Assembly (NCBI GenBank): GCA_963837495.1
Contig: CAWINF010000003.1
Span: 398,784 to 462,783, forward strand
Direction of reading: 5' to 3'
Source of the DNA: an uncultured Acidobacteriota bacterium
Lineage (GTDB): Bacteria > Acidobacteriota > Thermoanaerobaculia > UBA5066 > Gp7-AA6
Length of the DNA stretch: 64,000 bases
The position numbers and the translations under genes were made by a program. The notes under the pieces were generated by a model, which saw nothing but the letters and a program-made list of their open reading frames with translations, searched no databases and was not told the DNA's origin. Shown one piece after another: positions 7,993-63,460 of this stretch. The number at the start of each line of letters is the position of its first letter. The first letter of the stretch is position 1.

Positions 7993-8885
7993 GCACGCTC
8001 CCCATCCGCGCCCCGGAATGGATCCGCGAAAAGCGCCTGCGCCTGGCCGACCTCCACGAGGTCAAGCGCGTGATGCGCGCCGGCTATCTCCACACGGTCT
8101 GCGAGGAGGCGCGATGCCCCAACCGTGGAGAGTGTTTCGTCCGCGGGACCGCGACGTTCCTCCTGCTCGGCGACATCTGCACGAGGGCCTGCGGCTTCTG
8201 CGACATCGCCACGGGACGGCCCCGCCCCGTGGACCCGCTGGAGCCGGCCAGGGTGGCGGCGGCGGCGAGCCGGATGAGCCTGAAGTTCGTCGTCGTGACG
8301 TCGGTGGACCGCGACGACCTGCCTGACGGAGGCGCCGCCCACTTCGCCGGGACGATCCGGGCGCTGCGCGACCTCTCGCCGGTTCCCGGAATCGAGGTGC
8401 TCACGCCCGATTTCCGCGGCCGGCTCGATTCCGTGCGGACCGTCGTCGAAGCGGGGCCCGACGTCTTCAACCACAACGTCGAGACCGTTCCGCGTCTCTA
8501 TTCCCGGGCGCGCCGCGGCTCGAAGCTCGAACGCTCGCTCGCGGTCCTCGCCGAAGCGAAAAGGCTCGACCCGCGGATGACGACGAAGTCGGGCTTGATG
8601 GTGGGTCTGGGAGAGACGGAGCAGGAAGTGCTCGATCTGCTCGGCGGCCTCCGAGCGTCCCAGGTGGAGATCGTCACGATCGGCCAGTACCTGCGCCCCT
8701 CGCGCCAGAACCTGCCCGTCGAGGAGTACGTCGCCCCGGAGATGTTCGACCGCTACCGCGAAGCGGGGGAGAGGATGGGCTTCCGCCATGTCTTCTCCGG
8801 TCCCTTCGTGCGCTCCTCCTATCGCGCCGAAGAAGCCCTCGCCGCCGCCTCTTCTCCCTCTCCCTCCGGGAGAGGGTCGGGGTGA
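7968..8885 (+). CDS. lipA: Lipoyl synthase.
   Basis: Radical-SAM and auxiliary cluster motifs CEEARCPNRGEC and CTRACGFC; aligns with E. coli LipA (RAPEWI..LHTVCEE). Confidence 0.9.
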   Translation: MDRSAGRIGTLPIRAPEWIREKRLRLADLHEVKRVMRAGYLHTVCEEARCPNRGECFVRGTATFLLLGDICTRACGFCDIATGRPRPVDPLEPARVAAAASRMSLKFVVVTSVDRDDLPDGGAAHFAGTIRALRDLSPVPGIEVLTPDFRGRLDSVRTVVEAGPDVFNHNVETVPRLYSRARRGSKLERSLAVLAEAKRLDPRMTTKSGLMVGLGETEQEVLDLLGGLRASQVEIVTIGQYLRPSRQNLPVEEYVAPEMFDRYREAGERMGFRHVFSGPFVRSSYRAEEALAAASSPSPSGRGSG

Positions 8886-10423
8886 GGGGCCAACCCAAGC
8901 CCACACCCTCCTCCTGGAGGACGCTGGCCGCCGGCGTCCTCTCGGGTCTCCTCTACGCCCTGGCCTTCCCGCCGCTCGAGTGGGTGCTCTTGCTGCCGCT
9001 GGCTCTCGTGCCCTGGATGCTCGCGCTCGCGGCGGAAGAAAGCCGTGCCCGCGCCCTCCTCTCCGGGTTCGTCTTCGGCCTCGCCTACTGGTGCGCTTCG
9101 ATCCCGTGGATCTTCTACGTCGTCACGCGTTACGGCGGCCAGTCCGAAGTCATGGGCGTCATCTGCGTGCTCATCCTGGCCGCGATTCTGGCCGAGTGGC
9201 CCGCGGTCGTGGCCTGGGGAGTCGTCTCCTGCGCGAGGGCGGGCTCGTGGAGGCGTTTCGCCGCCTTTCCGTTGCTCTGGATGGCGGCCGAGCACGCGAG
9301 GTCCTTCGTCTATGGAGGGTTCCCCTGGAATCTGACCGGGCACGCTCTCTATCGCCACCCGGTCTGGACGCAGTCCGCGTCCGTGTGGGGCGTTTACGGA
9401 GTCGGCCTCGCCGTCATGGCCACGACGGCCCTTCTGGCGGCATCGATCCGGAAGCGCAGCGCGCGCCCCATCCTGGCGGCCGCGGCCCTGGCGCTCGCCG
9501 CCGGAGGCTGGGGAGCGCTGCGGCTGGCCGCGAAGCCCGAGGGAGGCGCGCCTCTGCCGGTCGCTCTTCTCCAGCCGAACCTTTCGCAGGAGTCCCGCCT
9601 GGCCGCCGGCGGTGAAGCGAGCAACTATCTCGCCGTGATCGAGTCCGCGCGCGCGGCCGCGACTTCGAAGCCGTCGCTCATCGTGATCCCCGAGTCGGCA
9701 TTTCCAACCTACTGGCAGAGGAGCGAGCGGATGCGGCGGGACTTGACCGGGATCGCGCGGGAGAGCGGCGGAGCCGTTTTGTTCAACGACGTCCAGGAGG
9801 AGCCGGACGGGCGCTATTACAACGTGGCGCGCCTCTGCGGACCGGAGGGGCTTCTCGGAAATCCCTATCGCAAGGTCCACCTCGTCCCCTTCGGCGAGTA
9901 CGTTCCGCTGCCCAGGCTCTTCTTCTTCGTGCGGCAGATCTCGACGGAGATCGGGGCTTTCTCCGCGGCGTCGCGCCCGGCGACGATCGGATGGGGGCCG
10001 CTGTCGGTCGGCCTCGGGGTCTGCTATGAGGTTCTGTATCCTTCCCTCGCTCGGGCGGAGGTCGCGCAGGGAGCCAACCTTCTGGCGACGATCTCCAACG
10101 ACTCCTGGTACGGGCGGGCGGGCGCGCAGCCCCAGCACTTCGCGGGAGCCGTCCTGAGGGCGGTCGAGAACCGCCGGTATCTTCTGCGCGCGGCGATCAC
10201 GGGCATCTCGGGCATCGTGGACGAGAAGGGGCGCATCCTCCAGGAGCTGGGAGAGAACCGCTCCGGCATCCTGCGCGGAACCGCCCGGCTTCTCAAGTCT
10301 GAGACCGCCTGGACGCGATGGGGTTACTGGCTGCCCCGTCTGGGCGATGCCGCGGGGCTCGCCGTGCTACTCTTCGGCGCTGTCCGACTCCTCGGCTCTC
10401 GAAAGCCGAGGGGCGGCAGCTGA
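8882..10423 (+). CDS. lnt: Apolipoprotein N-acyltransferase.
   Basis: Multi-TM N-terminus plus a CN-hydrolase domain (IVIPESAF..., GVCYEVLYP, NDSWY). GTGA overlap with lipA. Confidence 0.9.
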   Translation: MRGQPKPTPSSWRTLAAGVLSGLLYALAFPPLEWVLLLPLALVPWMLALAAEESRARALLSGFVFGLAYWCASIPWIFYVVTRYGGQSEVMGVICVLILAAILAEWPAVVAWGVVSCARAGSWRRFAAFPLLWMAAEHARSFVYGGFPWNLTGHALYRHPVWTQSASVWGVYGVGLAVMATTALLAASIRKRSARPILAAAALALAAGGWGALRLAAKPEGGAPLPVALLQPNLSQESRLAAGGEASNYLAVIESARAAATSKPSLIVIPESAFPTYWQRSERMRRDLTGIARESGGAVLFNDVQEEPDGRYYNVARLCGPEGLLGNPYRKVHLVPFGEYVPLPRLFFFVRQISTEIGAFSAASRPATIGWGPLSVGLGVCYEVLYPSLARAEVAQGANLLATISNDSWYGRAGAQPQHFAGAVLRAVENRRYLLRAAITGISGIVDEKGRILQELGENRSGILRGTARLLKSETAWTRWGYWLPRLGDAAGLAVLLFGAVRLLGSRKPRGGS

Positions 10424-11584: not shown

Positions 11585-12133
11585 ATGGACGAGATCCGCG
11601 CCCGTCTCTCCGCTCGTCATCCGCGCGAGCCCGAAATTCCCGGAGAGGAGCTCCGGCGGGCCGGCGTGCTCGTCCCGCTTTTCGTGCGCGACGCCGGTCT
11701 CTGGATTCTCTTTACCCGCCGCACCGAAAGCCTCGAGCATCATCCCGGACAGATCTCGTTTCCCGGAGGATCCGAAGAGCCCGGCGATGAAAGCCTCTTT
11801 GCCACGGCGGTGCGGGAGACGGAGGAGGAACTGGCGGTCGCGCCGTCGGACATCATGGCTCTGGGCTCCCTCTCGCCGATCGTGACGGTCACTCACTTCT
11901 ACGTCGAGCCCTACGTGGCGGCGCTGCCTCAGCCCTACGTCTGGAAGCCCGCGGAGGCGGAGATCGCCGAGGTCATCGAGGTCCCGATCCGGGCCCTCAT
12001 GGACCCCGCGGTCCTCGAGAAGAAGCCAATGCCCGGGCGCGAGGGCCTCATCCTCTTCTACCGTCACGACCGCCACGTCATCTGGGGAGCAACCGCCGCG
12101 ATCCTCTCCGAGCTCCTCGAGGCCCTGAAGTAA
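11585..12133 (+). CDS. NUDIX hydrolase (CoA pyrophosphatase NudL-like).
   Basis: Nudix box GGSEEPGDESLFATAVRETEEELAV. Start taken at ATG 11585 (alternative TTG 11555); the listed ORF starts further upstream in the same frame. Confidence 0.8.
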   Translation: MDEIRARLSARHPREPEIPGEELRRAGVLVPLFVRDAGLWILFTRRTESLEHHPGQISFPGGSEEPGDESLFATAVRETEEELAVAPSDIMALGSLSPIVTVTHFYVEPYVAALPQPYVWKPAEAEIAEVIEVPIRALMDPAVLEKKPMPGREGLILFYRHDRHVIWGATAAILSELLEALK

Positions 12134-13149: not shown

Positions 13150-13616
13150 CTCGGCTCATGGAAGCCAGCCGTGTCCGGACACGGCTCGTGGAGAGATCTC
13201 GATCGACAGAGGAGAGTTGGTGGCCCCAACGAGACTCGAACCCGTGCCGCGGCCTCCGGGGGGCTCGGGGGGCACCACGTGCCCCCCGCTCATGGAGCCA
13301 GCCGTGTCCGGACACGGCTCGTGAAGAGATCTCGATCGACAGAGGAGAACTGGTGGCCCCAACGGGACTCGAACCCGTGCCGCGGCCTCCGGGGGGCTCG
13401 GGGGGCATCACGTGCCCCCCGCTCATGGAGCCAGCCGTGTCCGGACACGGCTCGTGGAGAGATCTCGATCGACAGAGGAGAACTGGTGGCCCCAACGGGA
13501 CTCGAACCCGTGCCGCGGCCTCCGGGGGGCTCGGGGGGCACCACGTGCCCCCCGCTCATGGAGCCAGCCGTGTTCGGACACGGCTCGTGGAGAGATCTCG
13601 ATCGACAGAGGAGAAC
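13150..13616 (-). repeat. Tandem array of tRNA-Glu-derived units, period 133 bp. Three perfect units start (plus-strand coordinates) at 13218, 13351 and 13484; a partial unit covers 13150-13217.
   Basis: On the minus strand each unit ends with the exact tRNA-Glu T-arm and acceptor 3' strand plus CCA (ggccgcggcacgggttcgagtcccgttggggccacca). This is preceded by two perfect GC hairpins (GGGGGGCAC..GUGCCCCCC and AGCCGUGUCC/GGACACGGCU) and a palindromic GATCGAGATCTC segment. Confidence 0.85.
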
Positions 13617-13691
13617 TGGTGGCCCCAACGGGACTCGAACCCGTGCCGCGGCCTTGAAAGAGCCGTGTCCTAACCACTAGACGATGGGGCC
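13617..13691 (-). tRNA. tRNA-Glu(UUC).
   Basis: Minus strand GGCCCCATCGTCTAGTGGTTAGGACACGGCTCTTTCAAGGCCGCGGCACGGGTTCGAGTCCCGTTGGGGCCACCA. It has a full cloverleaf, anticodon loop CTTTCAA and an encoded CCA. Confidence 0.9.
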
Positions 13692-13854
13692 CGAAAAAAC
13701 GATAGCACGCATGTCATATTGAGCCGAACTGCGAGGGACTCGAACCCGTGCCGCGGCCTCCGGGGGGCTCGGGGGGCCACATGGCCCCCCGCTCAAATCA
13801 GCCAGGCGTGTCGGCTCCGCAGGAGCCGTGTCCTAACCACTAGACGATGGGGCC
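13692..13854 (-). ncRNA. tRNA-Glu-like pseudo-tRNA or structured RNA unit (163 nt).
   Basis: Intact tRNA-Glu 5' half (GGCCCCATCGTCTAGTGGTTAGGACACGGCT). The anticodon loop is replaced by a 7-bp stem with a UGC triloop. A ~60-nt GC-hairpin insertion and a T-arm follow, but the acceptor 3' strand is non-complementary. It ends GCGUGCUAUCGUUUUUUCG. Confidence 0.5.
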
Positions 13855-14018
13855 CGAAAAAACGATAGCACGCATGTCATATTGAGCCGAACTGCGAGGG
13901 ACTCGAACCCGTGCCGCGGCCTCCGGGGGGCTCGGGGGGCCACATGGCCCCCCGCTCAAATCGGCCAGCCGTGTCGGCCGCGTAGCGGCCGTGTCCTAAC
14001 CACCTAGACGATGGGGCC
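13855..14018 (-). ncRNA. Second tRNA-Glu-like pseudo-unit (164 nt), paralogous to 13692-13854.
   Basis: Same architecture. The replaced anticodon arm differs by compensatory pairs (CGGCUCC-UGC-GGAGCCG versus CGGCCGC-UAC-GCGGCCG). Confidence 0.5.
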
Positions 14019-14110
14019 TCGGACCGAGAAAAACGATAGCACGGGGATCTCATTCCGCGCCGAGCAGCGCGGGACTCGAACCGGTACCGCCGGCGCCGGT
14101 GAGCCCCTCA
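14019..14110 (-). repeat. Partial third tRNA-like unit (T-arm-like GGTTCGAGTCC, CUAUCGUUUUUC spacer and GC hairpins).
   Basis: Contains gcgggactcgaaccggtacc and the perfect palindrome ccctctcccgccgggagaggg. Confidence 0.4.
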
Positions 14111-14146
14111 CCCCGACCCTCTCCCGCCGGGAGAGGGAGAAGGGCG

Positions 14147-26389: not shown

Positions 26390-27160
26390 TCAGTGTACGG
26401 CTTTCTTGCGGAATTGGCGGAGGCCGGCGATCAGGAACGCCGCGTCGAAGCCGATCAGGGCGCCGAGGATCGCCGGAATGGAGAGATGCGGAAACTGGGG
26501 CACGAGAGCGCTGCGCAGACCCTCGCTGGAATACACGACGGGATTGATGAGGACGGCCTTCTGCAGGAAAGAGAACCGCGCCAGGGCGCTCCACGGGTAG
26601 TACGTACAGCCGAAGAAAATCATGGGGGCGAGAACGAGCGAGAACATCAGACCGATCTGCGTCTGCCCGATCGAGCATCCCAGCGTCAATCCGAGCGAGG
26701 AAGAGAGGAACGCGATCAGCAGGCAGAGCGCCGCGAAGAGGAGAGGGTGGGGGAGCCGCAGGTCCACTCCCTTCCCCATGACGAGCCAGGCGGAAGGGAG
26801 GACGACGAGACCGGCGACGAGCGCCTGGATCATGCCGGCCAGGATCTTCTCCACGGCCACCCACTCGATCTCGATGGGAGCGAGCAGGCGGTCCTCGATT
26901 TCCTTGCTGAACTGGAACTCGGAGATGAGCGGCATGGCGACGGCCTGGATGCCGGAGAGAAACATCGAGAGCGCCATGATGCCCGGCAAGAGCAGGCTCT
27001 TGTATTGCAGCGGCATGTAGCCGCTCGCCGTCATCACGCGCCCGAAGATGAAGACGAGGAGCATCGGCTGCAGGAGCGTCTGGAGCAGGAGGGGGATGAA
27101 GTTGCGCCTCGCGACGCGCGCGTCGCGCCCGAGCAGAGCGAGGAAGGTCTTCGCGTTCAT
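26390..27160 (-). CDS. ABC-2 type transporter permease.
   Basis: Six TM segments with the ABC-2 signature region. Start is ATG 27160. The listed 318-aa ORF is extended artificially through the MITE copy. Confidence 0.8.
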   Translation of the reverse strand: MNAKTFLALLGRDARVARRNFIPLLLQTLLQPMLLVFIFGRVMTASGYMPLQYKSLLLPGIMALSMFLSGIQAVAMPLISEFQFSKEIEDRLLAPIEIEWVAVEKILAGMIQALVAGLVVLPSAWLVMGKGVDLRLPHPLLFAALCLLIAFLSSSLGLTLGCSIGQTQIGLMFSLVLAPMIFFGCTYYPWSALARFSFLQKAVLINPVVYSSEGLRSALVPQFPHLSIPAILGALIGFDAAFLIAGLRQFRKKAVH

Positions 27161-27167
27161 GCGGCCC

Positions 27168-27328
27168 TTGTCATCCTGAGTGAAGCGAAGGATCTGCTCC
27201 GGCTCTGGCGTCAGAGCGGATCCCTCGTCGCTTCGCTCGCGCCGTCGCCATAGCGGCCTTCCGCCTTCGCCGGAGAGCCGTAGCCGCTTCGGCGGAGGCT
27301 CTGGCGCGTCGGCGACCTCGGGATGACA
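27168..27328. mobile_element. MITE-like element copy 1 (TIR TTGTCATCCTGAG / CTCGGGATGACA), 161 bp.
   Basis: Shares termini and internal modules (GCGAAGGATCTGC, GGCTCTGGCGCGTCGGCGAC, CGCTTCGCTCGCGCCGTCGCCATAGCGGC) with the copies at 39478 and 63286. It sits exactly between the ABC ATPase stop and the permease start. Confidence 0.75.
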
Positions 27329-27346
27329 GGATGGAGTGGAGCACAC

Positions 27347-28372
27347 CTAGTCCCGCAGGCTCCGCCCCGTGTGGTGGAGGAAGAGGTTCTCGAGCGACGG
27401 CTCGGAAATGTGGACGTCGGAAATGTCGGCGCCGGCCTGCGTGGCTGCGGCGACGGCGGGCGGCACCAGCGGGCCGCCGCGGTCGGCGTAGAGGTCGGCT
27501 CCGTTCTCGCCGATGGGGCGCACCTCTGTGACACCCGGGAGGCGCGCGAGCGTCTCGAGCAGCTGCGGGGAGCGCGGATGGAACTGCAGGCGGATGACGA
27601 AGCCGCCGGGGATCGAGCTTTTCAGCTCCGCCGGCGTGCCGAGCGCGATGATCCGGCCGTGGTCCACGATGGCGACTCGCCGGCACAGTTCGTCCGCCTC
27701 CTCCATGTTGTGCGTGGTCAGGACGATCGTCCGGCCCCGAGCGTTGTACTCGCGCACGATCTCCCAGAGGAGAAGCCGCGTCTGAGGATCGAGTCCCGCC
27801 GAGGGCTCGTCCAGGAAGAGAACCTCCGGGTCGTGCATCATGGCGCGCGCGATCGAGAGCCGCTGCATCGTTCCTCCCGAGAGGACCCGCGGGAGCTGAT
27901 CGGCGCGCTCGGTCAATTGAAACCGCGCCAGCAGCTCCTCGGCGCGGCGCGACCGCTCCGCCGCAGGCAGCCGGAAATAGGCGCCGTGAAAGGTCAGGAT
28001 CTCCCGGACGGTCAGCGAGAAGTCCAGGTTCGGCCGCTGCGGAACGACACCGATCAAAGGCTTGACCGCGACCGGCCGCTGCCAGACGTCGTGGTCGCCG
28101 ATCCAGGCGCGTCCTCCGGTCGGACGGATCCGCGTGGTCAGGATGCCGACCGTCGTGGACTTGCCGGCGCCGTTGGGCCCCAGGAGCCCGAAGATCTCCC
28201 CGGGCCGGACCTCGAGCGTGAGGCCGGCCAGGGCCGTGATCTCGATCTTCTCCTTCTTTCCCTTCGAGCGCGCCGGCGCCCGCGAGAGCGAGAAGGCCCC
28301 GGCCATCGTCGCCGCCGGTGGGGCGGACGTGTAGACCTTGCGCAGGTCCTCGGTCCGAATCGACAGCGGCAC
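27347..28372 (-). CDS. ABC transporter ATP-binding protein (ABC-2/DrrA-like).
   Basis: Walker A GPNGAGKST, signature LSGGTMQRLSIA and Walker B LFLDEP, plus a C-terminal accessory domain. Confidence 0.85.
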   Translation of the reverse strand: MPLSIRTEDLRKVYTSAPPAATMAGAFSLSRAPARSKGKKEKIEITALAGLTLEVRPGEIFGLLGPNGAGKSTTVGILTTRIRPTGGRAWIGDHDVWQRPVAVKPLIGVVPQRPNLDFSLTVREILTFHGAYFRLPAAERSRRAEELLARFQLTERADQLPRVLSGGTMQRLSIARAMMHDPEVLFLDEPSAGLDPQTRLLLWEIVREYNARGRTIVLTTHNMEEADELCRRVAIVDHGRIIALGTPAELKSSIPGGFVIRLQFHPRSPQLLETLARLPGVTEVRPIGENGADLYADRGGPLVPPAVAAATQAGADISDVHISEPSLENLFLHHTGRSLRD

Positions 28373-35768: not shown

Positions 35769-38630
<2,862 letters not shown>

Positions 38631-38809
38631 TGAGGCCGGGCCTGGCGCGGCGCTGCCGGGAAGAGAACGATTCTCCGCGGCGTTGTCATGGCGGTTTCCG
38701 AGTCTATGGGGCGCGCTCCGGGCAGGTCAAGATGCATGAGAGGGGCCTGAAAACGCACTCCCGAACCCCCGAGCCGTCATAGATTGGGCCGGAATTGGAG
38801 GAAAACAGG

Positions 38810-39469
38810 ATGAAAAGGAATCTCCGTCTCGTGGCGATCCTCGCCTTGCTGGCCGCGGCGGCCCTGCCTCTCCTCGGCGATACCGAGACCTTCACCTTCG
38901 ACAAGGCGCACACGCTGGTAGGCTTCCGCATCCGGCACTTCGTCTCCAAGGTGGAAGGGCGGTTCAAGGATTTCGAGGGAACGATCTGGATCGACCGCGC
39001 CAACCCGTCCGCCTCGAAGGTCGAGCTGACGATTCAGGCCGCTTCGATCGACACCGCCAGCGAAAACCGGGACAAGGACCTGCGCTCGGAGAACTTTTTC
39101 GATGCCGCGAAGTACCCGACGATCACGTTCAAGAGCACGAAGATCACGCCGAAAGGGAGCGACAGCTACGACGTGACCGGCGAGTTCACCCTGCACGGCG
39201 TCACGAAGACGATCACCGTTCCCGTCAAGCACGGGGGGTTCCTCAGCATCAAGGGGCGAAACGGCATGATCGAGAAAACAGGTTTCGAGATCAACTTCCC
39301 GCTCAACCGGAAGGACTTCGGGATTACCTGGAACCGTCCCCTCGACACGGGCGGCTTCATGCTCTCCGACGACGTGGACATCAACATCCAGGTCGAAGCC
39401 AACAAGCAGATGCCCGACCAGGAAAAGCCTCCCGCGCCCGCCGCCGCGCCGACCCCCGCGAAGGGCTGA
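38810..39469 (+). CDS. YceI-family periplasmic protein.
   Basis: RBS GGAGGA, signal peptide and YceI-like lipocalin core (FDKAHTLVGFRIRHFVSKVEGRF). Confidence 0.85.
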   Translation: MKRNLRLVAILALLAAAALPLLGDTETFTFDKAHTLVGFRIRHFVSKVEGRFKDFEGTIWIDRANPSASKVELTIQAASIDTASENRDKDLRSENFFDAAKYPTITFKSTKITPKGSDSYDVTGEFTLHGVTKTITVPVKHGGFLSIKGRNGMIEKTGFEINFPLNRKDFGITWNRPLDTGGFMLSDDVDINIQVEANKQMPDQEKPPAPAAAPTPAKG

Positions 39470-39477
39470 TCACACGA

Positions 39478-39672
39478 TTGTCATCCTGAGCGCAGCGAAG
39501 GATCTGCCCTTCACGGAGAGAGAGCAGATCCTTCGTCACTTCGCTCGCGCCGTCGCCCTAGCGGCTTTCCGCCTTCGCTGGAGAGCAGTAGCCGCGCGCC
39601 GTCGCCATAGCGGCTTTGGCGCGTCGGCGACTTCGGCGGAGGCTCTGGCGCGTCGGCGACCTCAGGATGACA
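39478..39672. mobile_element. MITE-like element copy 2 (TTGTCATCCTGAG...CTCAGGATGACA), 195 bp with an internal duplication.
   Basis: Same TIRs and internal modules as copy 1. Confidence 0.75.
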
Positions 39673-39715
39673 GGGACGGGGCCGGAGACCCGGCCTGCTA
39701 ACATTGGTCTTCCTG

Positions 39716-40522
39716 ATGGAATCGCACGTTCTCGGCTGGGTCGCCGTGGCTCTCTATCTCGGCGCCGAGGCTTACTCGATCGTCTCCCTCGTCCGGCCGC
39801 GCGTGTCCCCCCTGCCCGGCCATCTGATGGTCGGGGCGGGCCTGGCCCTTCAGTTCGCGGATCTCGAAGCCCGGGCGCGGGCCCTCCATTCGGTTCCCTA
39901 CCGCACGATCGGCGGTTCCCTCTCGCTCTTCGGCTGGATGCTGGGTCTCTCCTATCTCGCGCTCCTCTTCCGCCACCGGGAACGGGCCGTCGGGCCGTTC
40001 CTGATTCCGTTTGTGATTGCCTTCTCGGTCCTGGGTCTGTTGTTGCCGCAGCCCGGCGTGGTCGCGCGCACGGATACGCGCGGCCCCGTCTTCGCCCTGC
40101 ATGTGACCTTCGCGATCCTGGCCTACGCCGCCTTCACCTTTTCCTTCGTGCTGTCGGTCCTGTACCTGATCCAGAAGCGCCAGCTTCGCCGGGTCCAGAC
40201 GGGACTTCTCTTCGCCCGGCTGCCGGCCCTGGACGTCATCGGGAGGATGAACCGGACGAGCGTCTCGATCGGCCTGTCGGTTCTCGGTGTGTCCGTGGTG
40301 CTGGGGAGCATCTGGGCCGAGCGGGTCTGGAGCCGGCTTCCGGACGCCAAATTCGGATTCGCGATCCTGACTCTCGTCATCTACGGGTTTCTTCTCTTCA
40401 AGGACCGGCGGGGGTGGGGGGGCGAGCGCGTGGCGCTGCTCTCGATCCTCGGTTTCGCGATGATCATCTTCTCGTACACGTTCGTCAACCTCTACCTCTC
40501 GACGCAGCACGTCTTCCGATGA
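39716..40522 (+). CDS. hemX: CcsA/HemX-like cytochrome c assembly family membrane protein.
   Basis: Eight TM segments with a Trp-rich WAxxxWG-like region. Its stop overlaps the hemA start, as in the hemAX operons of Firmicutes. Confidence 0.7.
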   Translation: MESHVLGWVAVALYLGAEAYSIVSLVRPRVSPLPGHLMVGAGLALQFADLEARARALHSVPYRTIGGSLSLFGWMLGLSYLALLFRHRERAVGPFLIPFVIAFSVLGLLLPQPGVVARTDTRGPVFALHVTFAILAYAAFTFSFVLSVLYLIQKRQLRRVQTGLLFARLPALDVIGRMNRTSVSIGLSVLGVSVVLGSIWAERVWSRLPDAKFGFAILTLVIYGFLLFKDRRGWGGERVALLSILGFAMIIFSYTFVNLYLSTQHVFR

Positions 40523-41781
40523 GCATCTCTCAGGAGACCCGGCTCGCCCTGCTGGGATGGAGCTTTCGCGGAGCGGGCGTGTCCGTGCGCGAGCGGGTCG
40601 CCTTCACGGCCGACGAGATCCGCGAGGCGCTGACGGGCCTCCTGCAGCGGGGCGTGATCTCCGAGGGGGTCATCGTATCCACCTGCCATCGGAGCGAGAT
40701 CTACAGCTTCGCCTCCGACGAGGTCTCCCGCGACGGTCTGACGCGGTATCTCTCGGAGTGGCGGGGCCTCGACCAGGCCGAATTGGAAGGCTCCTGTTTC
40801 TACCGGGTGGGAGCCGACGCGGTCCATCACCTCTTCCGCGTCGCCGCGGGGCTCGACTCGCTGGCGCTCGGCGAGAGCGAGGTCCTCGGCCAGGTGCGGC
40901 AGGCCCTGAGTCTCGCCCGGGAATCCGGGTCCACCCGGGCGGTGATGCACCGCCTCTTCGAGAGCGCCGTCGCGGCCGGCAAGCGCGTGCGCGCGGAGAC
41001 GGAGATCGCCCGGCATCCGCTCTCCGTTTCGTCCATCGGGTTCGAGCTCGCGATGAAGGTCTTCGGCGACTTGTCCCAGCGCCGGGTGCTGGTCATTGGA
41101 GCGGGGGAGACCGGCTCGCTCTTCGCGCGCCACGCGGTCGAGGCCGGGGTGCGCTCCCCCGTGATCCTCAACCGCACCGCGTCGCGGGCGCAGGAGCTGG
41201 CGGCGAGCGTCAACGGCCGCGCCGCCGCCTGGGAGAGTCTCGCGCAGGAAGTTCCCCTGGCCGACGTCGTCGTCAGCGCGACTTCGAGCCCCCTGCCTCT
41301 CGTCACCCGCGCCCAGGTCGAGGCGGCGATGCGCGACCGGCGCGGCCGCCCGATGTTCTTTCTGGATCTCGCCGTGCCCCGCGACATCGCCCCCGACGTC
41401 TCCGAGGTCTACAACGTCTTTTCCTACTCGATCGACGACCTGGAGGAGGTCGCGCGGGAAAACCGCGCACGGCGGGCGCGGGAGGTTCCGGTGGCCGAAA
41501 AGATCGTCCAGGAAGAGCTGGAGAACTATCTCGCGTGGCTGGGGAACCTCTCGGTCGTGCCGACCGTGACGCAGTGGCGCCACCGGCTGGAAGAGCTGCG
41601 CGATCTCGAGCTCGATCGCGCGCCGGCGGCCGAGCGCGAGCGCCTGCGCAGGCTCCTGGACGCTTTCTCCGCGAGAATCCTGCACGAGCCCATGCGCCGG
41701 ATGAAGGCGGAGTCCGATCCCGCCCGCAAACTGGACCGCGTCGAAGCGGTGCGGCATCTCTTCGATCTGGACAGGGAGTAA
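40519..41781 (+). CDS. hemA: Glutamyl-tRNA reductase.
   Basis: N-terminal catalytic domain with STCHRSEIY (active-site Cys) and NADPH domain VIGAGETG. ATGA overlap with hemX. Confidence 0.9.
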   Translation: MSISQETRLALLGWSFRGAGVSVRERVAFTADEIREALTGLLQRGVISEGVIVSTCHRSEIYSFASDEVSRDGLTRYLSEWRGLDQAELEGSCFYRVGADAVHHLFRVAAGLDSLALGESEVLGQVRQALSLARESGSTRAVMHRLFESAVAAGKRVRAETEIARHPLSVSSIGFELAMKVFGDLSQRRVLVIGAGETGSLFARHAVEAGVRSPVILNRTASRAQELAASVNGRAAAWESLAQEVPLADVVVSATSSPLPLVTRAQVEAAMRDRRGRPMFFLDLAVPRDIAPDVSEVYNVFSYSIDDLEEVARENRARRAREVPVAEKIVQEELENYLAWLGNLSVVPTVTQWRHRLEELRDLELDRAPAAERERLRRLLDAFSARILHEPMRRMKAESDPARKLDRVEAVRHLFDLDRE

Positions 41782-51475: not shown

Positions 51476-52660
51476 ATGCACCGTATACTTACAGCCGCTT
51501 TCCTTCTTCTATGTTCTACCGGGTTACTCGCGCAGGCGACGACCGAGCAGGCGTCCCGGTCCACCTTTGAGATCCAGGGTTTGAAGGTCAAGACACAGAT
51601 TGATTTCGACGGGGTGGTCCATCGGGCCTTGTATCAGGAGATCGTCCCGTGCCGGTTGGTGGACACTCGCGCGGGCTCGAATTTCGACGCGCCCTACGGC
51701 GGACCGGCGTTTGTCAACGAGACCCGGATATATTCCGTTTCGGGGGTCGGCCCGACCAACCCTTGTGCCATCGGGAACCGCGGCGCGGCAGACCCCGACG
51801 CGCGAACGTTTTCGCAGCCATGGATCGCCCTCAGTGTGATGGTCAAGATCTACAACGCCGAGACGGGCCCGGTCTCCGGCGCCTTCAGGATGCTGGGAGC
51901 CTCGGCGACACCCACGTGGTTTGGCTGGACGGGTGCCGGCGTGCTGGCTGCCCAGCAAGACGCAGTTGTTCTGACCAACGACCAGATTTCAGTTGCTGTT
52001 AACGGCGCGAAGGCCGACGTGACCGTCGATTTGCTCGGCTACTTTGTGGATGACCCGGCCCTTGCCGGCCCGCAGGGGCCCCAGGGTGAGAAAGGGGACA
52101 TTGGAGCCACCGGGCTGCAAGGGCCTGCGGGTCTGGCGGGGCCGCAGGGTGTCAAGGGCGACACGGGCGCGACCGGAACGACCGGGCTGCAAGGGCCTGC
52201 GGGTCCGGCGGGGCCGCAGGGTGTCAAGGGCGACACGGGCGCGATCGGAGCGTCCGGGCCGCAGGGGCCCGAAGGCGCGGCGGGACCGCAGGGTGTGAAG
52301 GGTGATACGGGTGCGGCCGGCGCGCAAGGACCCCAGGGTCTGGCGGGGCCGCAGGGTGTCAAGGGCGACACAGGTGCGGCCGGACCGCAGGGGCCCGAAG
52401 GTCCTGCTGGTCCGCAAGGTGCGAAGGGTGATACCGGAGCAACAGGACCGATTGGGCCGCAGGGGCCGCAAGGTATTCAGGGTCCTCCGGGGCCGCAAGG
52501 CCCTCCCGGCCCCTCTCCGGTCGGGGCCTCTGACTGCACGATACTGGAGCAAATCAAGGGGTGTCTTAGCGACAATGGGGGCTTCGCCAATTTTCGTGAG
52601 TGTACCCTGGCGTTGATTTGTCCGGCACCAGAAGCTCGGATCGTGAAGACGAGAAGTTAA
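51476..52660 (+). CDS. Secreted collagen-like triple-helix repeat protein.
   Basis: RBS AAGGAGG and signal peptide. A ~190-aa N-domain is followed by ~47 uninterrupted GXY triplets ([11 protein letters not shown]...) and a Cys-rich 45-aa C-terminal domain. Confidence 0.8.
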
Positions 52661-55600: not shown

Positions 55601-57838
55601 TTACTTGTGAGCCTGATGATTCCCGAACGTTAGATTGGTGACAACAACATCCAAGACCACGTTGCCATCGGCATCTGTGATGGTGTATCTGGCAGTGTCG
55701 TTTGTACCCGGCTCTCCCGCATCGGTAAAGGTCCACGTCGCCGTGGCGCCAGGCACGCCATTGTACCTGCCGGTGCCGACACCTATGTAGGTATCAAAGG
55801 GCGCGGCAGGTGGCGGCGGCGCTATGGCCGGATCGTCGAAGCAAGCAGCCGACACCAGATCAGTCATGTGGAACCTGTTGCCCGCCCAGTTGATCTCAAG
55901 GCTGTTGGGGTGTTTGCTGGCATTACAATGCAGCTCAAATCCATGCGTCACTCTGACGCCGTCAGTAGTGAACACACTGCCTCCACCGGTCATCCGGCCG
56001 CTCGCCGGCGTTGGCGTATTGGTCGGCGTATTCGTCGGGGTATTCGTGGGAGTGTTGGTCGGAGTGTTGGTCGGCGTATTCGTCGGGGTGGGGGTGTTGG
56101 TCGGCGTGTTGGTCGGGGTGTTCGTCGGGGTGGGGGTGTTGGTCGGCGTGTTGGTCGGGGTGTTCGTCGGGGTGTTGGTCGGCGTGTTGGTCGGGGTGTT
56201 GGTCGGGGTGTTCGTCGGCGTGTTGGTCGGCGTGTTGGTCGGCGTGTTGGTCGGCGTATTCGTCGGGGTGTTGGTCGGCGTGTTCGTCGGCGTATTCGTC
56301 GGCGTATTCGTCGGCGTGTTGGTGTTGGTCGGGGTGTTCGTCGGAGTGTCGGTGGGGGTGTTGGTCGGCGTGTTCGTCGGGGTGTTGGTCGGCGTGTTGG
56401 TCGGAGTGTTCGTCGGCGTATTCGTCGGCGTGTTGGTGGGGGTTGGAGTGTTTGTCGGAGTATTTGTCGGCGTATTGGTCGGCGTATTGGTCGGCGTGGG
56501 CGTGCAGGCCAGAACCAGAACCGTGTTCGTGGTGCTGGCCGACACCGGAAGCGGGATACCCCCGCCATTCGTGTCCGTGCCGGTGGCCGCGACTTGATCG
56601 GTGAAGAGAGTGGTCCCGCCCGGATCGCAGGAAGGCGCCGTCTCGTCTATATTGCCACCGCAGGTATCCCCCGGCGTGCCAAGAGGCTGGAGAACAGTCA
56701 CAGGAGTGCCGGCGGGGAATTCGCAGGGGATGGGCACGGGACCGCCGCCAGGAAATGGAACCTCGTTCGTAATGGCAAGGTTGATGACCGTGTTGACCGG
56801 GTCCTGGTTCTGGACCGTGTAGGAGCAAGAGAACGAGGCGCCCGGCGGCTCGACGGAGGGACAGGTCTTGGTTATCCCCAGACCGGTCGTGACATTAACG
56901 GCGTCAATCCCGGCCTTGCCCTTGGTCAGCGTGGTGGTCGTCCGCGACGTGTGGGTGGCCTGACTCGACGACATGCCCGTGGGGCAAGGCGTCAGAGCGC
57001 CCGTGGCGCTGAAGGTCCCCGTGAAATTGGAGTTTCCCTCGCCGCCCGCGCCGCCGGTCAGGAAGGCTTCGAAGCTCGCCGGCTTGCCGGCGAAACCATC
57101 CTGCCCGTCCGCTCCCGTGTTGTTCGCCGCCCTGAGATTGGCGCCCTGGCTCTGCTCCTCGTCCACGGGCTTGACGGCGAGCGCGTTGTAGTCGTTGCCG
57201 AATGAGGTGTAGACCGCGGAGGCCCACTGCCACTTCGCGGTTACCCCGGGCGTGTCGGTGGAAAAGGCCGCCGACCAGGTAACCGAACCGATGCCCCCGG
57301 GCAGACCCCCGGCGGGAACCGGGAAAGCAAGCCCGGAGAGAAAAGCCCTCCCCGAGAGACCGCCGGGGACGATCGTGACCCAGCGATTGTTCGCGGCATC
57401 GAAGCCCGTCGAAGCGACCGTCGCCGCCGGGTCGATGACGACCGTGGCGGCCGGAACGGCCAGGCTGTAGCTCTTGCCGTTGGCGACGAACGAAATCGTC
57501 GAATCATTCAGGAAAATACTCGCCGGCTGGGCCGCGAGTCCATCGACTCGCAGAGCGCTGTTGAACCAGATGACGTTGCCCTCGGCGATCGAAGTCGCGT
57601 TGAAGCCCGATTCGATCGAACTCAACGCCGTGCACGATCTCTCCATCTGGGGGGTGGAGGGCACCGGGGTACCCCTCTGGGGAGAGCTGCCTCTCGCCAG
57701 AGACACCAGCGCGATACCCAGGCACAAGACTCCCAGGCCCGACCAGATGCGCCACCTTCTGCGCGCTCCGGCGGAACTTGCCCAGGCATCGAACCAGGAA
57801 AAACGCGACCCTACGCGACGGCGACGCCCTGAGTCCAT
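55601..57838 (-). CDS. Large secreted protein with an extensive (TPTN)n tetrapeptide-repeat linker.
   Basis: 745 aa with an Arg-rich N-terminus and TM/signal region. The central ~165 aa are TPTNTPTN... encoded by a 12-bp tandem repeat. Flanking domains are Gly/Thr-rich with Cys pairs. Confidence 0.7.
56008..56500. repeat. 12-bp tandem repeat (about 40 units of GTTGGTCGGCGT and variants) encoding (TPTN)n.
   Basis: Direct reading of gttggtcggcgtattggtcggcgtattcgtcgggg... throughout. Confidence 0.9.
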
Positions 57839-63285: not shown

Positions 63286-63404
63286 TTGTCATCCTGAGGT
63301 CGCCGACGCGCCAGAGCCGCCATGGCGACGGCGCGAGCGAAGCGACGAAGGATCTGCTCGTCTTTTCTCAAGAGGGCAGATCCTTCGCTGCGCTCAGGAT
63401 GACA
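63286..63404. mobile_element. MITE-like element copy 3 (119 bp), with its internal module inverted relative to copies 1 and 2.
   Basis: Termini TTGTCATCCTGAG and CTCAGGATGACA. Internal gtcgccgacgcgccagagcc and cgagcgaagcgacgaaggatctgc are reverse complements of modules in copies 1 and 2. Confidence 0.7.
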
Positions 63405-63460
63405 AGAGGCTCGGGATGACAAGAAAAGGCTCAGGATGACAAGACGAGGCTCGGGATAGC
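63405..63460. repeat. Three extra tandem ~18-bp partial-TIR units (GGCTC[A/G]GGATGACAAGA...).
   Basis: Reads agaggctcgggatgacaagaaaaggctcaggatgacaagacgaggctcgggatagc. Confidence 0.7.

Follow-up and report, generated by a model that had tools for sequence, protein, structure and literature searches.

What are the three short repeats that lie between genes in this stretch of soil Acidobacteria DNA, and what could have spread them? The stretch analysed here, 64 kb long, is called the window, and labels of the form L214 denote stretches fetched from other genomes and metagenomes for comparison. A first-pass annotation of the window had described the repeats as a novel family resembling miniature inverted-repeat transposable elements (MITEs). 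We propose, at a probability of roughly 0.7, that the repeats are non-autonomous doublets, REPIN-like in build, of an Ssn-related hairpin motif (SRM). The main result for the window is that its repeats can be filed as Ssn-type hairpin motifs, a widespread kind that is already known.

Ssn proteins are single-domain GIY-YIG proteins of ~94 aa (cd10448) that bind to a hairpin repeat of defined orientation and cleave single-stranded DNA immediately upstream, in one orientation only (Chenal et al., Nat Commun 2025, PMC11893778). The repeat is named NTS in Neisseria (NTS/dRS3) and SRM in general; an ssn gene typically has inverted SRMs on both sides, and copies of the repeat number in the hundreds (PMC11893778). 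SsnA does not act on double-stranded DNA or on RNA, and strand-specific cleavage of single-stranded DNA is known for the Neisseria and Wolbachia homologues only (PMC11893778).

Three elements of one anatomy

The 13-mer TTGTCATCCTGAG, a terminus of the TTGVCATCCTGAG type, matches the window eight times with two mismatches or fewer (27168+/27317-, 39478+/39661-, 63286+/63393-, 63410- and 63430-). All eight matches fall within three elements, which span 27168-27329 (copy 1), 39478-39673 (copy 2) and 63286-63405 (copy 3, followed by tandem partial ends as far as 63460). In the shuffle control the mean was 0.85 and the maximum 3, and none of 100 shuffles reached eight. The three copies with shared 13-bp inverted termini seen in the first-pass annotation are therefore genuine. 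Similarity by chance, or through low-complexity GC-rich sequence in a genome of 67% G+C, can be dismissed. It would have to account not only for this excess, but also for stretches of 33-45 nt that are 93-100% identical between copies and for hundreds of near-identical copies elsewhere.

The 13-bp terminus is the first half, on the 5ʹ tag side, of a 25-nt hairpin unit, GTCATCCTGAGCGNAGCGAAGGATC, and each element carries one such unit. The basic element is 113-126 nt long and consists of the canonical motif; a 3ʹ extension, CTGCyC; a hypervariable loop of 8-25 nt; an inverted inner arm, GrGCAGATCCyTCGTCGCTNCGCTC; and module B (GCGCCGTCGCCATAGCGGCTyTGGCGCGTCGGCGAC), followed by the inverted tag CTCrGGATGACA. 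Module B is inserted between ...CCYGAG and GAGCGNAGCGA of the second motif. Hence, the second motif is interrupted, and there is one intact motif per element. Longer copies contain nested modules: copy 3 is a basic unit, copy 1 adds a hairpin module, C, nested in B, and copy 2 adds C and a second B. What had been taken for shuffled internal modules are really nested insertions or duplications of extra hairpin modules within one arm. The window contains exactly three canonical motifs and four B modules, all of them in the elements, and the numbers expected by chance are 0.07 and 0.13, respectively. Among 28 aligned elements from different sites, conservation is at least 90% in both arms, with a hypervariable spacer between them (8-25 nt; positions 63360-63372 in copy 3). 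DNA folding z-scores relative to shuffles are -4.1, -5.8 and -6.4 for the copies.

In copy 1, the canonical motif, (T)GTCATCCTGAGTGAAGCGAAGGATC, lies at 27169..27194 on the plus strand; it has one mismatch to the consensus and is supported by stem covariation in the family. It comprises the 5ʹ tag GTC, a 5-bp stem (ATCCT/AGGAT), GA/GA and a central 7 nt, GTGAAGC; in the consensus, this central segment is drawn as two G-C pairs with a GNA loop. Comparison of direct and inverted pairs places the second, interrupted arm at 27214..27329 on the minus strand, where the tag CTGTCATCCCGAG (27329-27317) comes first, modules B and C (27316-27239) next and GAGCGAAGCGACGAGGGATCCGCTC (27238-27214) last. 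In copy 2, the canonical motif, GTCATCCTGAGCGCAGCGAAGGATC (39480..39504, plus strand), matches the consensus exactly and is identical in the orthologous element of L214. The interrupted arm of copy 2 (39522..39673, minus strand) has its tag at 39673-39661, modules B/C/B at 39660-39547 and the inner arm at 39546-39522.

Copy 3 as a whole, and not only its core as was first thought, is the reverse complement of copies 1 and 2. Its interrupted arm (63286..63359, plus strand) consists of the tag TTGTCATCCTGAG (63286-63298), module B (63299-63334) and the inner arm GAGCGAAGCGACGAAGGATCTGCTC (63335-63359). The canonical motif with its 3ʹ extension (TTGTCATCCTGAGCGCAGCGAAGGATCTGCCCT on the minus strand) lies at 63373..63405 and is 100% complementary to 39478-39510. 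Beside it, at 63406..63460 on the minus strand, are tandem units that have only the tag, with a period of 17-20 nt. Two of the three partial termini reported here are good, CTCGGGATGACAA (63410-63422) and CTCAGGATGACAA (63430-63442), and the third, CTCGGGATAGC (63450-63460), is degenerate. An inner inverted pair, GCGAAGGATCTGC/GCAGATCCTTCGC, had been ascribed to all copies; it is present in copies 2 and 3, and in copy 1 the partner is a degenerate GCGGATCCCTCG.

A hairpin motif in more than ten phyla

How widespread is the 25-nt motif? With N left free, the exact 25-mer is found in 64 stretches of the viral collection IMG/VR. Genome contigs add at least 120 further occurrences, and these represent more than 10 phyla. 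Isolates among the matches listed are Hymenobacter glaciei, Mucilaginibacter, Pedobacter and a Rhodospirillaceae strain. Contigs of 0.1-5 Mb from metagenome-assembled genomes add Acidobacteriota, Chloroflexota, Planctomycetota, Verrucomicrobiota, Nitrospirota, Pseudomonadota, Synergistota, Bacillota, Bacteroidota and Gemmatimonadota. The motif is also present in shorter contigs of this kind labelled Patescibacteria, Omnitrophota and Bdellovibrionota, for which binning error is possible. An inverted partner lies within 400 nt, across a variable spacer, for 67 of 143 motif matches. That one motif type is almost unchanged in more than 10 phyla goes somewhat beyond the 2025 description of these repeats, as do the ABC-operon junctions and the tag arrays considered below. 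A literature search for motif strings (11- and 13-mers, both strands) returned only unrelated primer matches.

The unit can be drawn as GTC-(ATCCT)-GA-(GC)-GNA-(GC)-GA-(AGGAT)-C. Among 45 distinct variants, there are compensatory changes in all five outer stem pairs, giving stems such as ATCCT/AGGAT, ATTCT/AGAAT, ATCCC/GGGAT, GTCCT/AGGAC and ATGCT/AGCAT, among others. Changes on both sides of the stem occupy 33 cells, as compared to 7.8 ± 2.2 in shuffles, and none of 500 shuffles reached 33. Furthermore, 94% of cells are paired, as compared to 17-53% when the partner is slid, and all four bases are found at the N in the centre of the loop. Judged by this covariation, the hairpin is a structure under selection. 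We used 25-mer variants from across phyla because the arms are too conserved within the window-type subfamily; RNAalifold detected almost no covariation among 28 basic units.

Some related elements (L237 3460-3490; L290; L282) are without the canonical left motif and abut heptamer tandem repeats (GTTGTGA x4 or TGATTGG-type). Four related IMG/VR contigs (L002, L040, L043 and L054) have a motif doublet at the same conserved position, and phages may ferry these repeats between hosts.

A GIY-YIG gene between inverted motifs

Which protein is associated with the motif? We clustered all open reading frames (ORFs) within 1.5 kb of a motif at 184 loci. Only one protein family, that of a small GIY-YIG protein (PF01541), turned up repeatedly beside the motif in the absence of shared synteny. 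At every locus with a gene between two inverted motif copies, that gene encodes a single-domain GIY-YIG nuclease of 93-100 aa. Such genes lie exactly between inverted motifs at loci fetched through the motif from Chloroflexota (L125), an Acidobacteriota chromosome (L154), Hymenobacter (L106), Pedobacter (L152) and a soil contig (L237), the last of which also has a window-type element. Retrieval by protein similarity avoids bias towards the motif, and at six of six loci found in this way the gene is again between inverted motifs: two are Thermoanaerobaculia-like (L305 and L306), two are viral contigs (L313 and L314), one is a Planktothrix plasmid (L316) and one is a Spirosoma plasmid (L318). 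The proteins from Acidobacteriota, Chloroflexota and Cyanobacteriota are 63-69% identical to each other. The family has at least 6,020 clusters at E≤1e-5; a scan of viral contigs with an alignment of the family found only two loci, and searches of PDB and NCBIfam with the protein gave no match. Other neighbour clusters (luciferase-like monooxygenase, RlmN-like, response-regulator and nonribosomal peptide synthetase) proved, by Pfam, to be ordinary neighbours or the result of shared synteny. In L316, which is plasmid p1 of Planktothrix agardhii, the motif-flanked GIY-YIG gene lies in a defence neighbourhood, with an MmeI-type restriction-modification gene on one side and drmA, a DISARM helicase gene, on the other.

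These data bear directly on the MITE reading, in which the elements would be deletion derivatives of an insertion sequence (IS), with the 13-bp terminal inverted repeats as the recognition sites of a DDE transposase that moves them in trans. A MITE is indeed what one would call a non-coding, intergenic, multicopy repeat of 118-196 nt that has terminal inverted repeats and is present or absent at an orthologous site. However, the only gene between the termini is that for the ~95-aa GIY-YIG nuclease. No transposase, including the parent transposase whose existence had been suggested, shares the termini or recurs within 1.5 kb of the motif at the 184 loci. The supposed terminal repeat is the tag of a hairpin conserved across phyla, unlike the ends of an IS, which are specific to it. 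Moreover, target-site duplications, which were to be checked for at the copy ends, were found for none of 68 distinct elements at k=2-8 (at k=1 there were 3, with 3.6 expected). We therefore regard a classical MITE as extremely unlikely. Nor is the family novel in kind, since its termini are one sequence type of the Ssn-related motifs described in 2025 (PMC11893778). The first-pass annotation had allowed that restriction to three sites without target-site duplications would point to a REP-like family instead. Duplications are indeed lacking; the repeats are far from restricted to three sites, because the window-type right end, GGCGCGTCGGCGACCTCRGGATGACA, occurs in at least 120 soil-metagenome stretches.

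Could the elements then belong to a REP/REPIN family moved by a RAYT, an IS200/IS605-like Y1 HUH transposase? An inverted hairpin doublet with a variable spacer, no target-site duplication, a position between co-directional genes and mosaic nesting like that of BIMEs would all fit (PMC3116915; PMC3733652). In contrast, the tag here is (T/C)GTCAT rather than GTAG (GT[AG]G), and the GIY-YIG genes of the motif-bearing loci adjoin the motif. A jackhmmer search with E. coli RayT, which as a single-sequence seed has limited sensitivity, found no homologue among 16,937 ORFs (2.37 Mb of motif loci plus the window). A survey of CGTC-tagged repeats found no tyrosine transposase dedicated to them (Di Nocera et al., PMC3733652). 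Movement by a RAYT thus seems very improbable, if marginally less so than movement by a DDE transposase.

The connection to Ssn is made through the protein. The protein of L237 is 46% identical (E=4e-27, pairwise) to the single matching ORF in N. gonorrhoeae (tblastn, plasmid collection). That ORF has canonical NTS repeats around it and was found at one place per record, on two chromosomes; from its NTS flanks, and as the sole match in the record, we take it as ssnA. Because the flanked protein is 46% identical to the product of an NTS-flanked gonococcal gene, we read the window repeats as Ssn-related motifs. One homologue, from Rhizobium (52% identity), has flanking copies of CGTCATCCCAGGGCTTGACCCTGGGATCC, a sequence that fits the published SRM pattern, HGTCWYN(0-2)YYVSBRHN(0-5)WNVSBRGN(0-2)RNCYNB; a Spirosoma homologue has the motif TGTCATCCCGAGGAACGAGGGATC, and a Novosphingobium homologue has a CGTC-tagged hairpin. 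The layout typical of SRMs, a GTC tag and a stem of ATCCT...AGGAT, is present in all three copies. The two gonococcal chromosomes, each of 2.17 Mb (NZ_CP119142.1, our L315, and NZ_CP119140.1), are filed as plasmids in the collection.

Gain, loss and inheritance at orthologous sites

How do the elements come to occupy their sites? For copy 1 we recovered six orthologous junctions between the ATPase and permease genes of an ABC transporter. Two are empty: L312 (ATPase 82% identical in amino acids to that of the window) has a gap of 2 nt, and L307 (93%) has a gap of 10 nt, TAG GTGGTCTCGT ATG. In L310 (82%), a plain doublet with similar leader flanks is in the same place, where the window has a doublet with modules B and C. 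The remaining junctions, in close relatives, have palindromic inserts that are unrelated to the doublet and to each other: one of 103 nt in L311 (94%; L311 2044-2146), GGAAGGCGGAAGG.../...CCGCCTTCCGCC, and one of 98 nt in L308/L309 (89%; L308 11030-11127), GTCAGTTTTCAGTT.../...AACTGATAACTG. It looks as though inserts that form hairpins have a hotspot at this junction. The empty junctions in L307 and L312 indicate that an insert of the copy 1 type comes and goes, and that the site turns over. The pattern would fit either one gain with later losses or repeated gains.

Alignment with L307 and L312 defines the whole insert of copy 1 as 27164..27339, with boundaries certain to ± ~3 nt. It includes a pyrimidine-rich leader of ~10 nt per strand outside the 13-nt termini. 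Both flanks favour YCC next to TGTCAT, and comparison of filled with empty ABC junctions revealed no target-site duplication. The filled, empty and differently filled sites at this junction provide direct comparative evidence for precise gain or loss without target duplication.

L214 is syntenic with window positions 36231-40704, at 87% nucleotide identity, and has an element at the position of copy 2. The canonical motifs are identical, whereas the element is 117 nt long in L214 and ~194-196 nt long in the window, which has internal additions of 49 nt and 29 nt. Hence, sites can be old while the modules change. For copy 3, L176 matches the downstream gene, but the insertion site is not syntenic.

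A proposed doublet of Ssn-related motifs

We propose that each element is a doublet with the intact 25-nt motif at one end and, at the other, an inverted motif whose loop has been expanded by one to three nested hairpin modules, the two arms being separated by the short hypervariable spacer. The autonomous form would be the same pair of inverted motifs flanking the gene for a 93-100 aa single-domain GIY-YIG protein of the Ssn family, as seen in other genomes. By analogy with Neisseria SsnA, the motif would fold as a hairpin in single-stranded DNA, the cognate Ssn would bind the folded hairpin, and it would nick that strand a few nt 5ʹ of the GTCAT tag, in one orientation only. The cognate Ssn of this lineage would recognise the 25-mer. 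Doublets would derive from a motif-ssn-motif unit, and their spread would involve single-stranded DNA. The comparisons above show precise gain or loss of the elements at intergenic sites beside a YCC leader, with no target-site duplication; an established element can be inherited vertically as its modules change. At copy 1, the outcome is a 162-nt stem-loop between cistrons, with the permease gene moved away from its putative ancestral ribosome-binding site.

Several points weigh against this proposal. First, cleavage of the window type of motif by an Ssn is inferred by analogy, and mobilisation of repeats by Ssn, in any organism, has been raised only as an idea, together with a resemblance to insertion sequences (PMC11893778). 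Second, excision of a single strand in the manner of IS608 does not follow, because each strand of a doublet has one cleavable motif. Third, there is no ssn-like gene within the 64-kb window. Fourth, copy 2 is conserved at its site between genomes that are 13% apart; hence, copies may be old and inactive. Fifth, the identity of gonococcal ssnA leans on the NTS flanks and on its being the sole match, in a stretch that is unannotated in the record.

Two further points concern the motif itself. The nearest-neighbour DNA energy of the isolated 25-mer is only -2.7 kcal/mol, no better than that of shuffles, as compared to -8.9 kcal/mol (z=-4.2) for the Neisseria NTS by the same model. The structural claim rests on covariation for this reason. 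Unusual stability in DNA is a property of both d(GCGNAGC) minihairpins and tandem sheared G-A pairs. In addition, no motif in the window fits the published SRM pattern, and the sole match to it in the window, at 11887(-), is at chance level (simulation mean 0.93). That pattern was built from 29 genomes of four phyla (PMC11893778), and we treat it as an operational search tool, not as a definition of the family. Since it misses GTCATCCTGAGCGNAGCGAAGGATC, current censuses probably undercount the repeats outside Proteobacteria.

A bolder version, which we put forward tentatively and rather doubt, is that the motif-ssn-motif unit is a self-propagating mobile element that spreads horizontally among most bacterial phyla, with a ~95-aa GIY-YIG nuclease of single-stranded DNA as its “transposase”. 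The doublets in the window would be its miniature derivatives and the arrays of tags the footprints of the reaction. A near-identical 25-mer across phyla, protein identities of 63-69%, the occurrences in viral contigs and the filled and empty sites without target-site duplications fit this version without proving it. If it were true, the mobilisation enzyme would be of a class not known for bacterial transposons.

Tag-only arrays

Arrays of the tag like those next to copy 3 are found elsewhere. Among 188 full motifs in other genomes, 18 are preceded, at a distance of 17-27 nt, by a truncated tag of the same orientation; in the downstream control there is 1 of 188. Furthermore, arrays of three to six tag units flank ssn-like genes in L237 (7363-7500), L305 (9696-9760 and 10368-10432) and L316 (698-760 and 1339-1400). 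Each unit of these arrays and of that in the window (63406-63460) consists of a tag and a leader of 6-14 nt, and the period is 17-27 nt. The arrays, in many phyla, sit where an Ssn would be expected to cut, by analogy with the characterised nuclease. They are a concrete clue to how the repeats multiply.

The repeats also break assemblies: many contigs with ssn are shorter than 2 kb, and several motif matches lie no more than ~100 nt from a contig end. Repeats and assembly breaks may explain short, spurious ORF calls.

The ABC-transporter operon and a possible role in RNA

All three copies are intergenic, as the first-pass annotation had noted, and each is between co-directional genes. Upstream of copy 1 is the ABC transporter ATPase gene (27347..28372, minus strand; PF00005, E=6e-30; orthologues 82-94% identical), and downstream is that for an ABC-2 permease (26390..27160, minus strand; PF01061). 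The ATPase stop codon, TAG, is at 27349-27347 and the permease ATG at 27160-27158, which confirms the placement of copy 1 between the two genes. The permease start at 27160 is supported because all orthologous permeases are 256 aa long. Copy 2 has a yceI-like gene on one side and a gene for cytochrome c assembly on the other. Copy 3 is between a gene for an aromatic-amino-acid lyase (hutH-like) and an ORF that runs off the window, which we take to be urocanate hydratase.

No terminator or promoter signal was found around copy 1. Hence, copy 1 should be co-transcribed with the operon. The intercistronic RNA has a predicted folding energy of -93.9 kcal/mol (z=-3.4). A Shine-Dalgarno-like AGGTGG at the end of the ATPase gene, perhaps the ancestral signal for the permease, is now ~180 nt upstream of the permease start, and on our reading AAGGG adjoining the end of the element now precedes the permease ATG. 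An effect of copy 1 on expression of the operon, such as the change in coupling or stability of the permease cistron put forward in the first-pass annotation, is possible.

Is a role in RNA then the primary one? The elements might be kept as transcribed stem-loops that tune their operons, whether they stabilise the cistron upstream or mask the ribosome-binding site downstream, with the link to a nuclease being incidental. All three copies are between co-directional genes and must be transcribed, their folds are strong (z from -3.4 to -6.4), and the ABC junction has gained three different palindromic inserts in relatives, so hairpins there are tolerated or favoured. However, only copy 2 has its canonical motif in the sense direction of transcription, those of copies 1 and 3 being antisense, and a mixed orientation in three copies supports no strand rule. 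The contexts of the 25-mer are of every kind, phage contigs and the surroundings of its nuclease gene among them, two relatives do well with an empty junction, and SsnA is inactive on RNA (PMC11893778). Rfam searches of the whole window (gathering scores) and of copy 2 (E≤10) returned only tRNAs and noise, which makes a known ribozyme or riboswitch unlikely. We consider a primary role in RNA improbable; as a side effect, it is compatible with doublets of an Ssn-related motif. A hammerhead-like reading of CUGAGCG...GAA was rejected: the core CUGANGA is not present and there is no Rfam match.

Other features of the window

A tRNA-Glu(ttc) gene (13617-13691) lies between two tandem arrays (window 13154-14018), the first with 3.8 units of 133 nt (13154-13654, 97% matches) and the second with 2.2 units of 163 nt (13660-14018). 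By eye, each unit holds a piece resembling the 3ʹ half of a tRNA (GGGACTCGAACCCGTGCCGCGG...), and the arrays look like repeated partial duplications of the end of a tRNA gene. ARAGORN calls a tRNA-Gly(ccc) at 13484-13565, inside the first array, without support from Rfam. A second, unrelated dispersed palindromic repeat, CTTCTCCCTCTCCCTCCGGGAGAGGGTCGGGGTGAGGGGC, is present at 8851-8895 and 14098-14142 as a 45-nt pair with 91% complementarity, and a partial match to it is found in soil contig L237 (3590-3640), beside a window-type element.

Two ORFs contain repeats. One encodes 745 aa (55601-57838, minus strand), has no Pfam match and contains ~36 copies of a 12-nt period, with the repeats at 55967-56500; soil contig L302 has a repeat region that is 75-77% identical. 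The other (51476-52660, plus strand) encodes collagen triple-helix repeats (PF01391, E=4e-24) and is made of DNA repeats of 63-72 nt.

Comparison with known systems

How do the doublets compare with repeats that are already described? With bacterial MITEs (Correia/NEMIS, RUP and Nezha) they share their size, terminal inverted repeats, lack of coding capacity, position between genes and co-transcription. They differ in having neither target-site duplications nor a parent IS that carries a DDE transposase.

The likeness to REPINs (Bertels and Rainey 2011, PMC3116915) goes further. Both are inverted pairs of hairpins that, with a spacer, form a non-autonomous unit, and both have one small nuclease-type gene flanked by the repeats, no target-site duplication and long vertical inheritance at their sites. 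The enzyme, however, is a GIY-YIG protein here and a Y1 HUH protein there. In addition, REPIN-RAYT systems are described as lineage-specific and vertically inherited, whereas the motif and gene considered here are almost unchanged across phyla. Like BIMEs, the elements are mosaics in which several kinds of short palindromic unit alternate in orientation; in the window elements these units are the motif arms and modules B and C, which vary in number and nesting from copy to copy. The units and the associated enzyme are different.

CGTC-tagged palindromic repeats, which include the RPEs of Rickettsia (Di Nocera et al. 2013, PMC3733652), are closer. They are short stem-loops with an unpaired (C)GTC tag at one end and without a tyrosine transposase, occur in several phyla and lie mostly between co-directional or convergent genes. 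The survey lists tagged repeats in eight phyla and CGTC repeats in five, with neither Acidobacteriota nor Chloroflexota among the latter. The hairpins that flank the Rhizobium and Novosphingobium homologues of Ssn are CGTC-tagged as well. The canonical motifs in the window are all TGTC; CGTC occurs in some family members (L212 and L276) and in the related motifs of Rhizobium, Neisseria and Novosphingobium. Judged by their description, CGTC-tagged repeats without a dedicated transposase, of which the survey has four families, probably belong to the same superfamily as SRMs.

The closest counterparts are the SRMs themselves, with the NTS of Neisseria. The window repeats differ from the NTS in having a stem of ATCCT-GA-GC/GC-GA-AGGAT with a GNA loop instead of TTCCCGC/GCGGGAA, and their isolated hairpin is predicted to be much weaker and escapes the published pattern. 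They also differ in being doublets in which the second motif has nested extra hairpins. In common with SRMs and the NTS, they have a 5ʹ (C/T)GTCAT tag that leads into a hairpin of ~20 nt ending in ATC, are oriented, multicopy and intergenic, and have relatives in other genomes whose inverted copies flank a gene for a single-domain GIY-YIG protein of ~94 aa. The NTS has the layout GTC-ATTCCCGC...GCGGGAAT-C, and the Rhizobium and Spirosoma motifs are alike. Judged by this shared GTC-AT...AT-C layout, the window motif is one sequence type within the SRM family.

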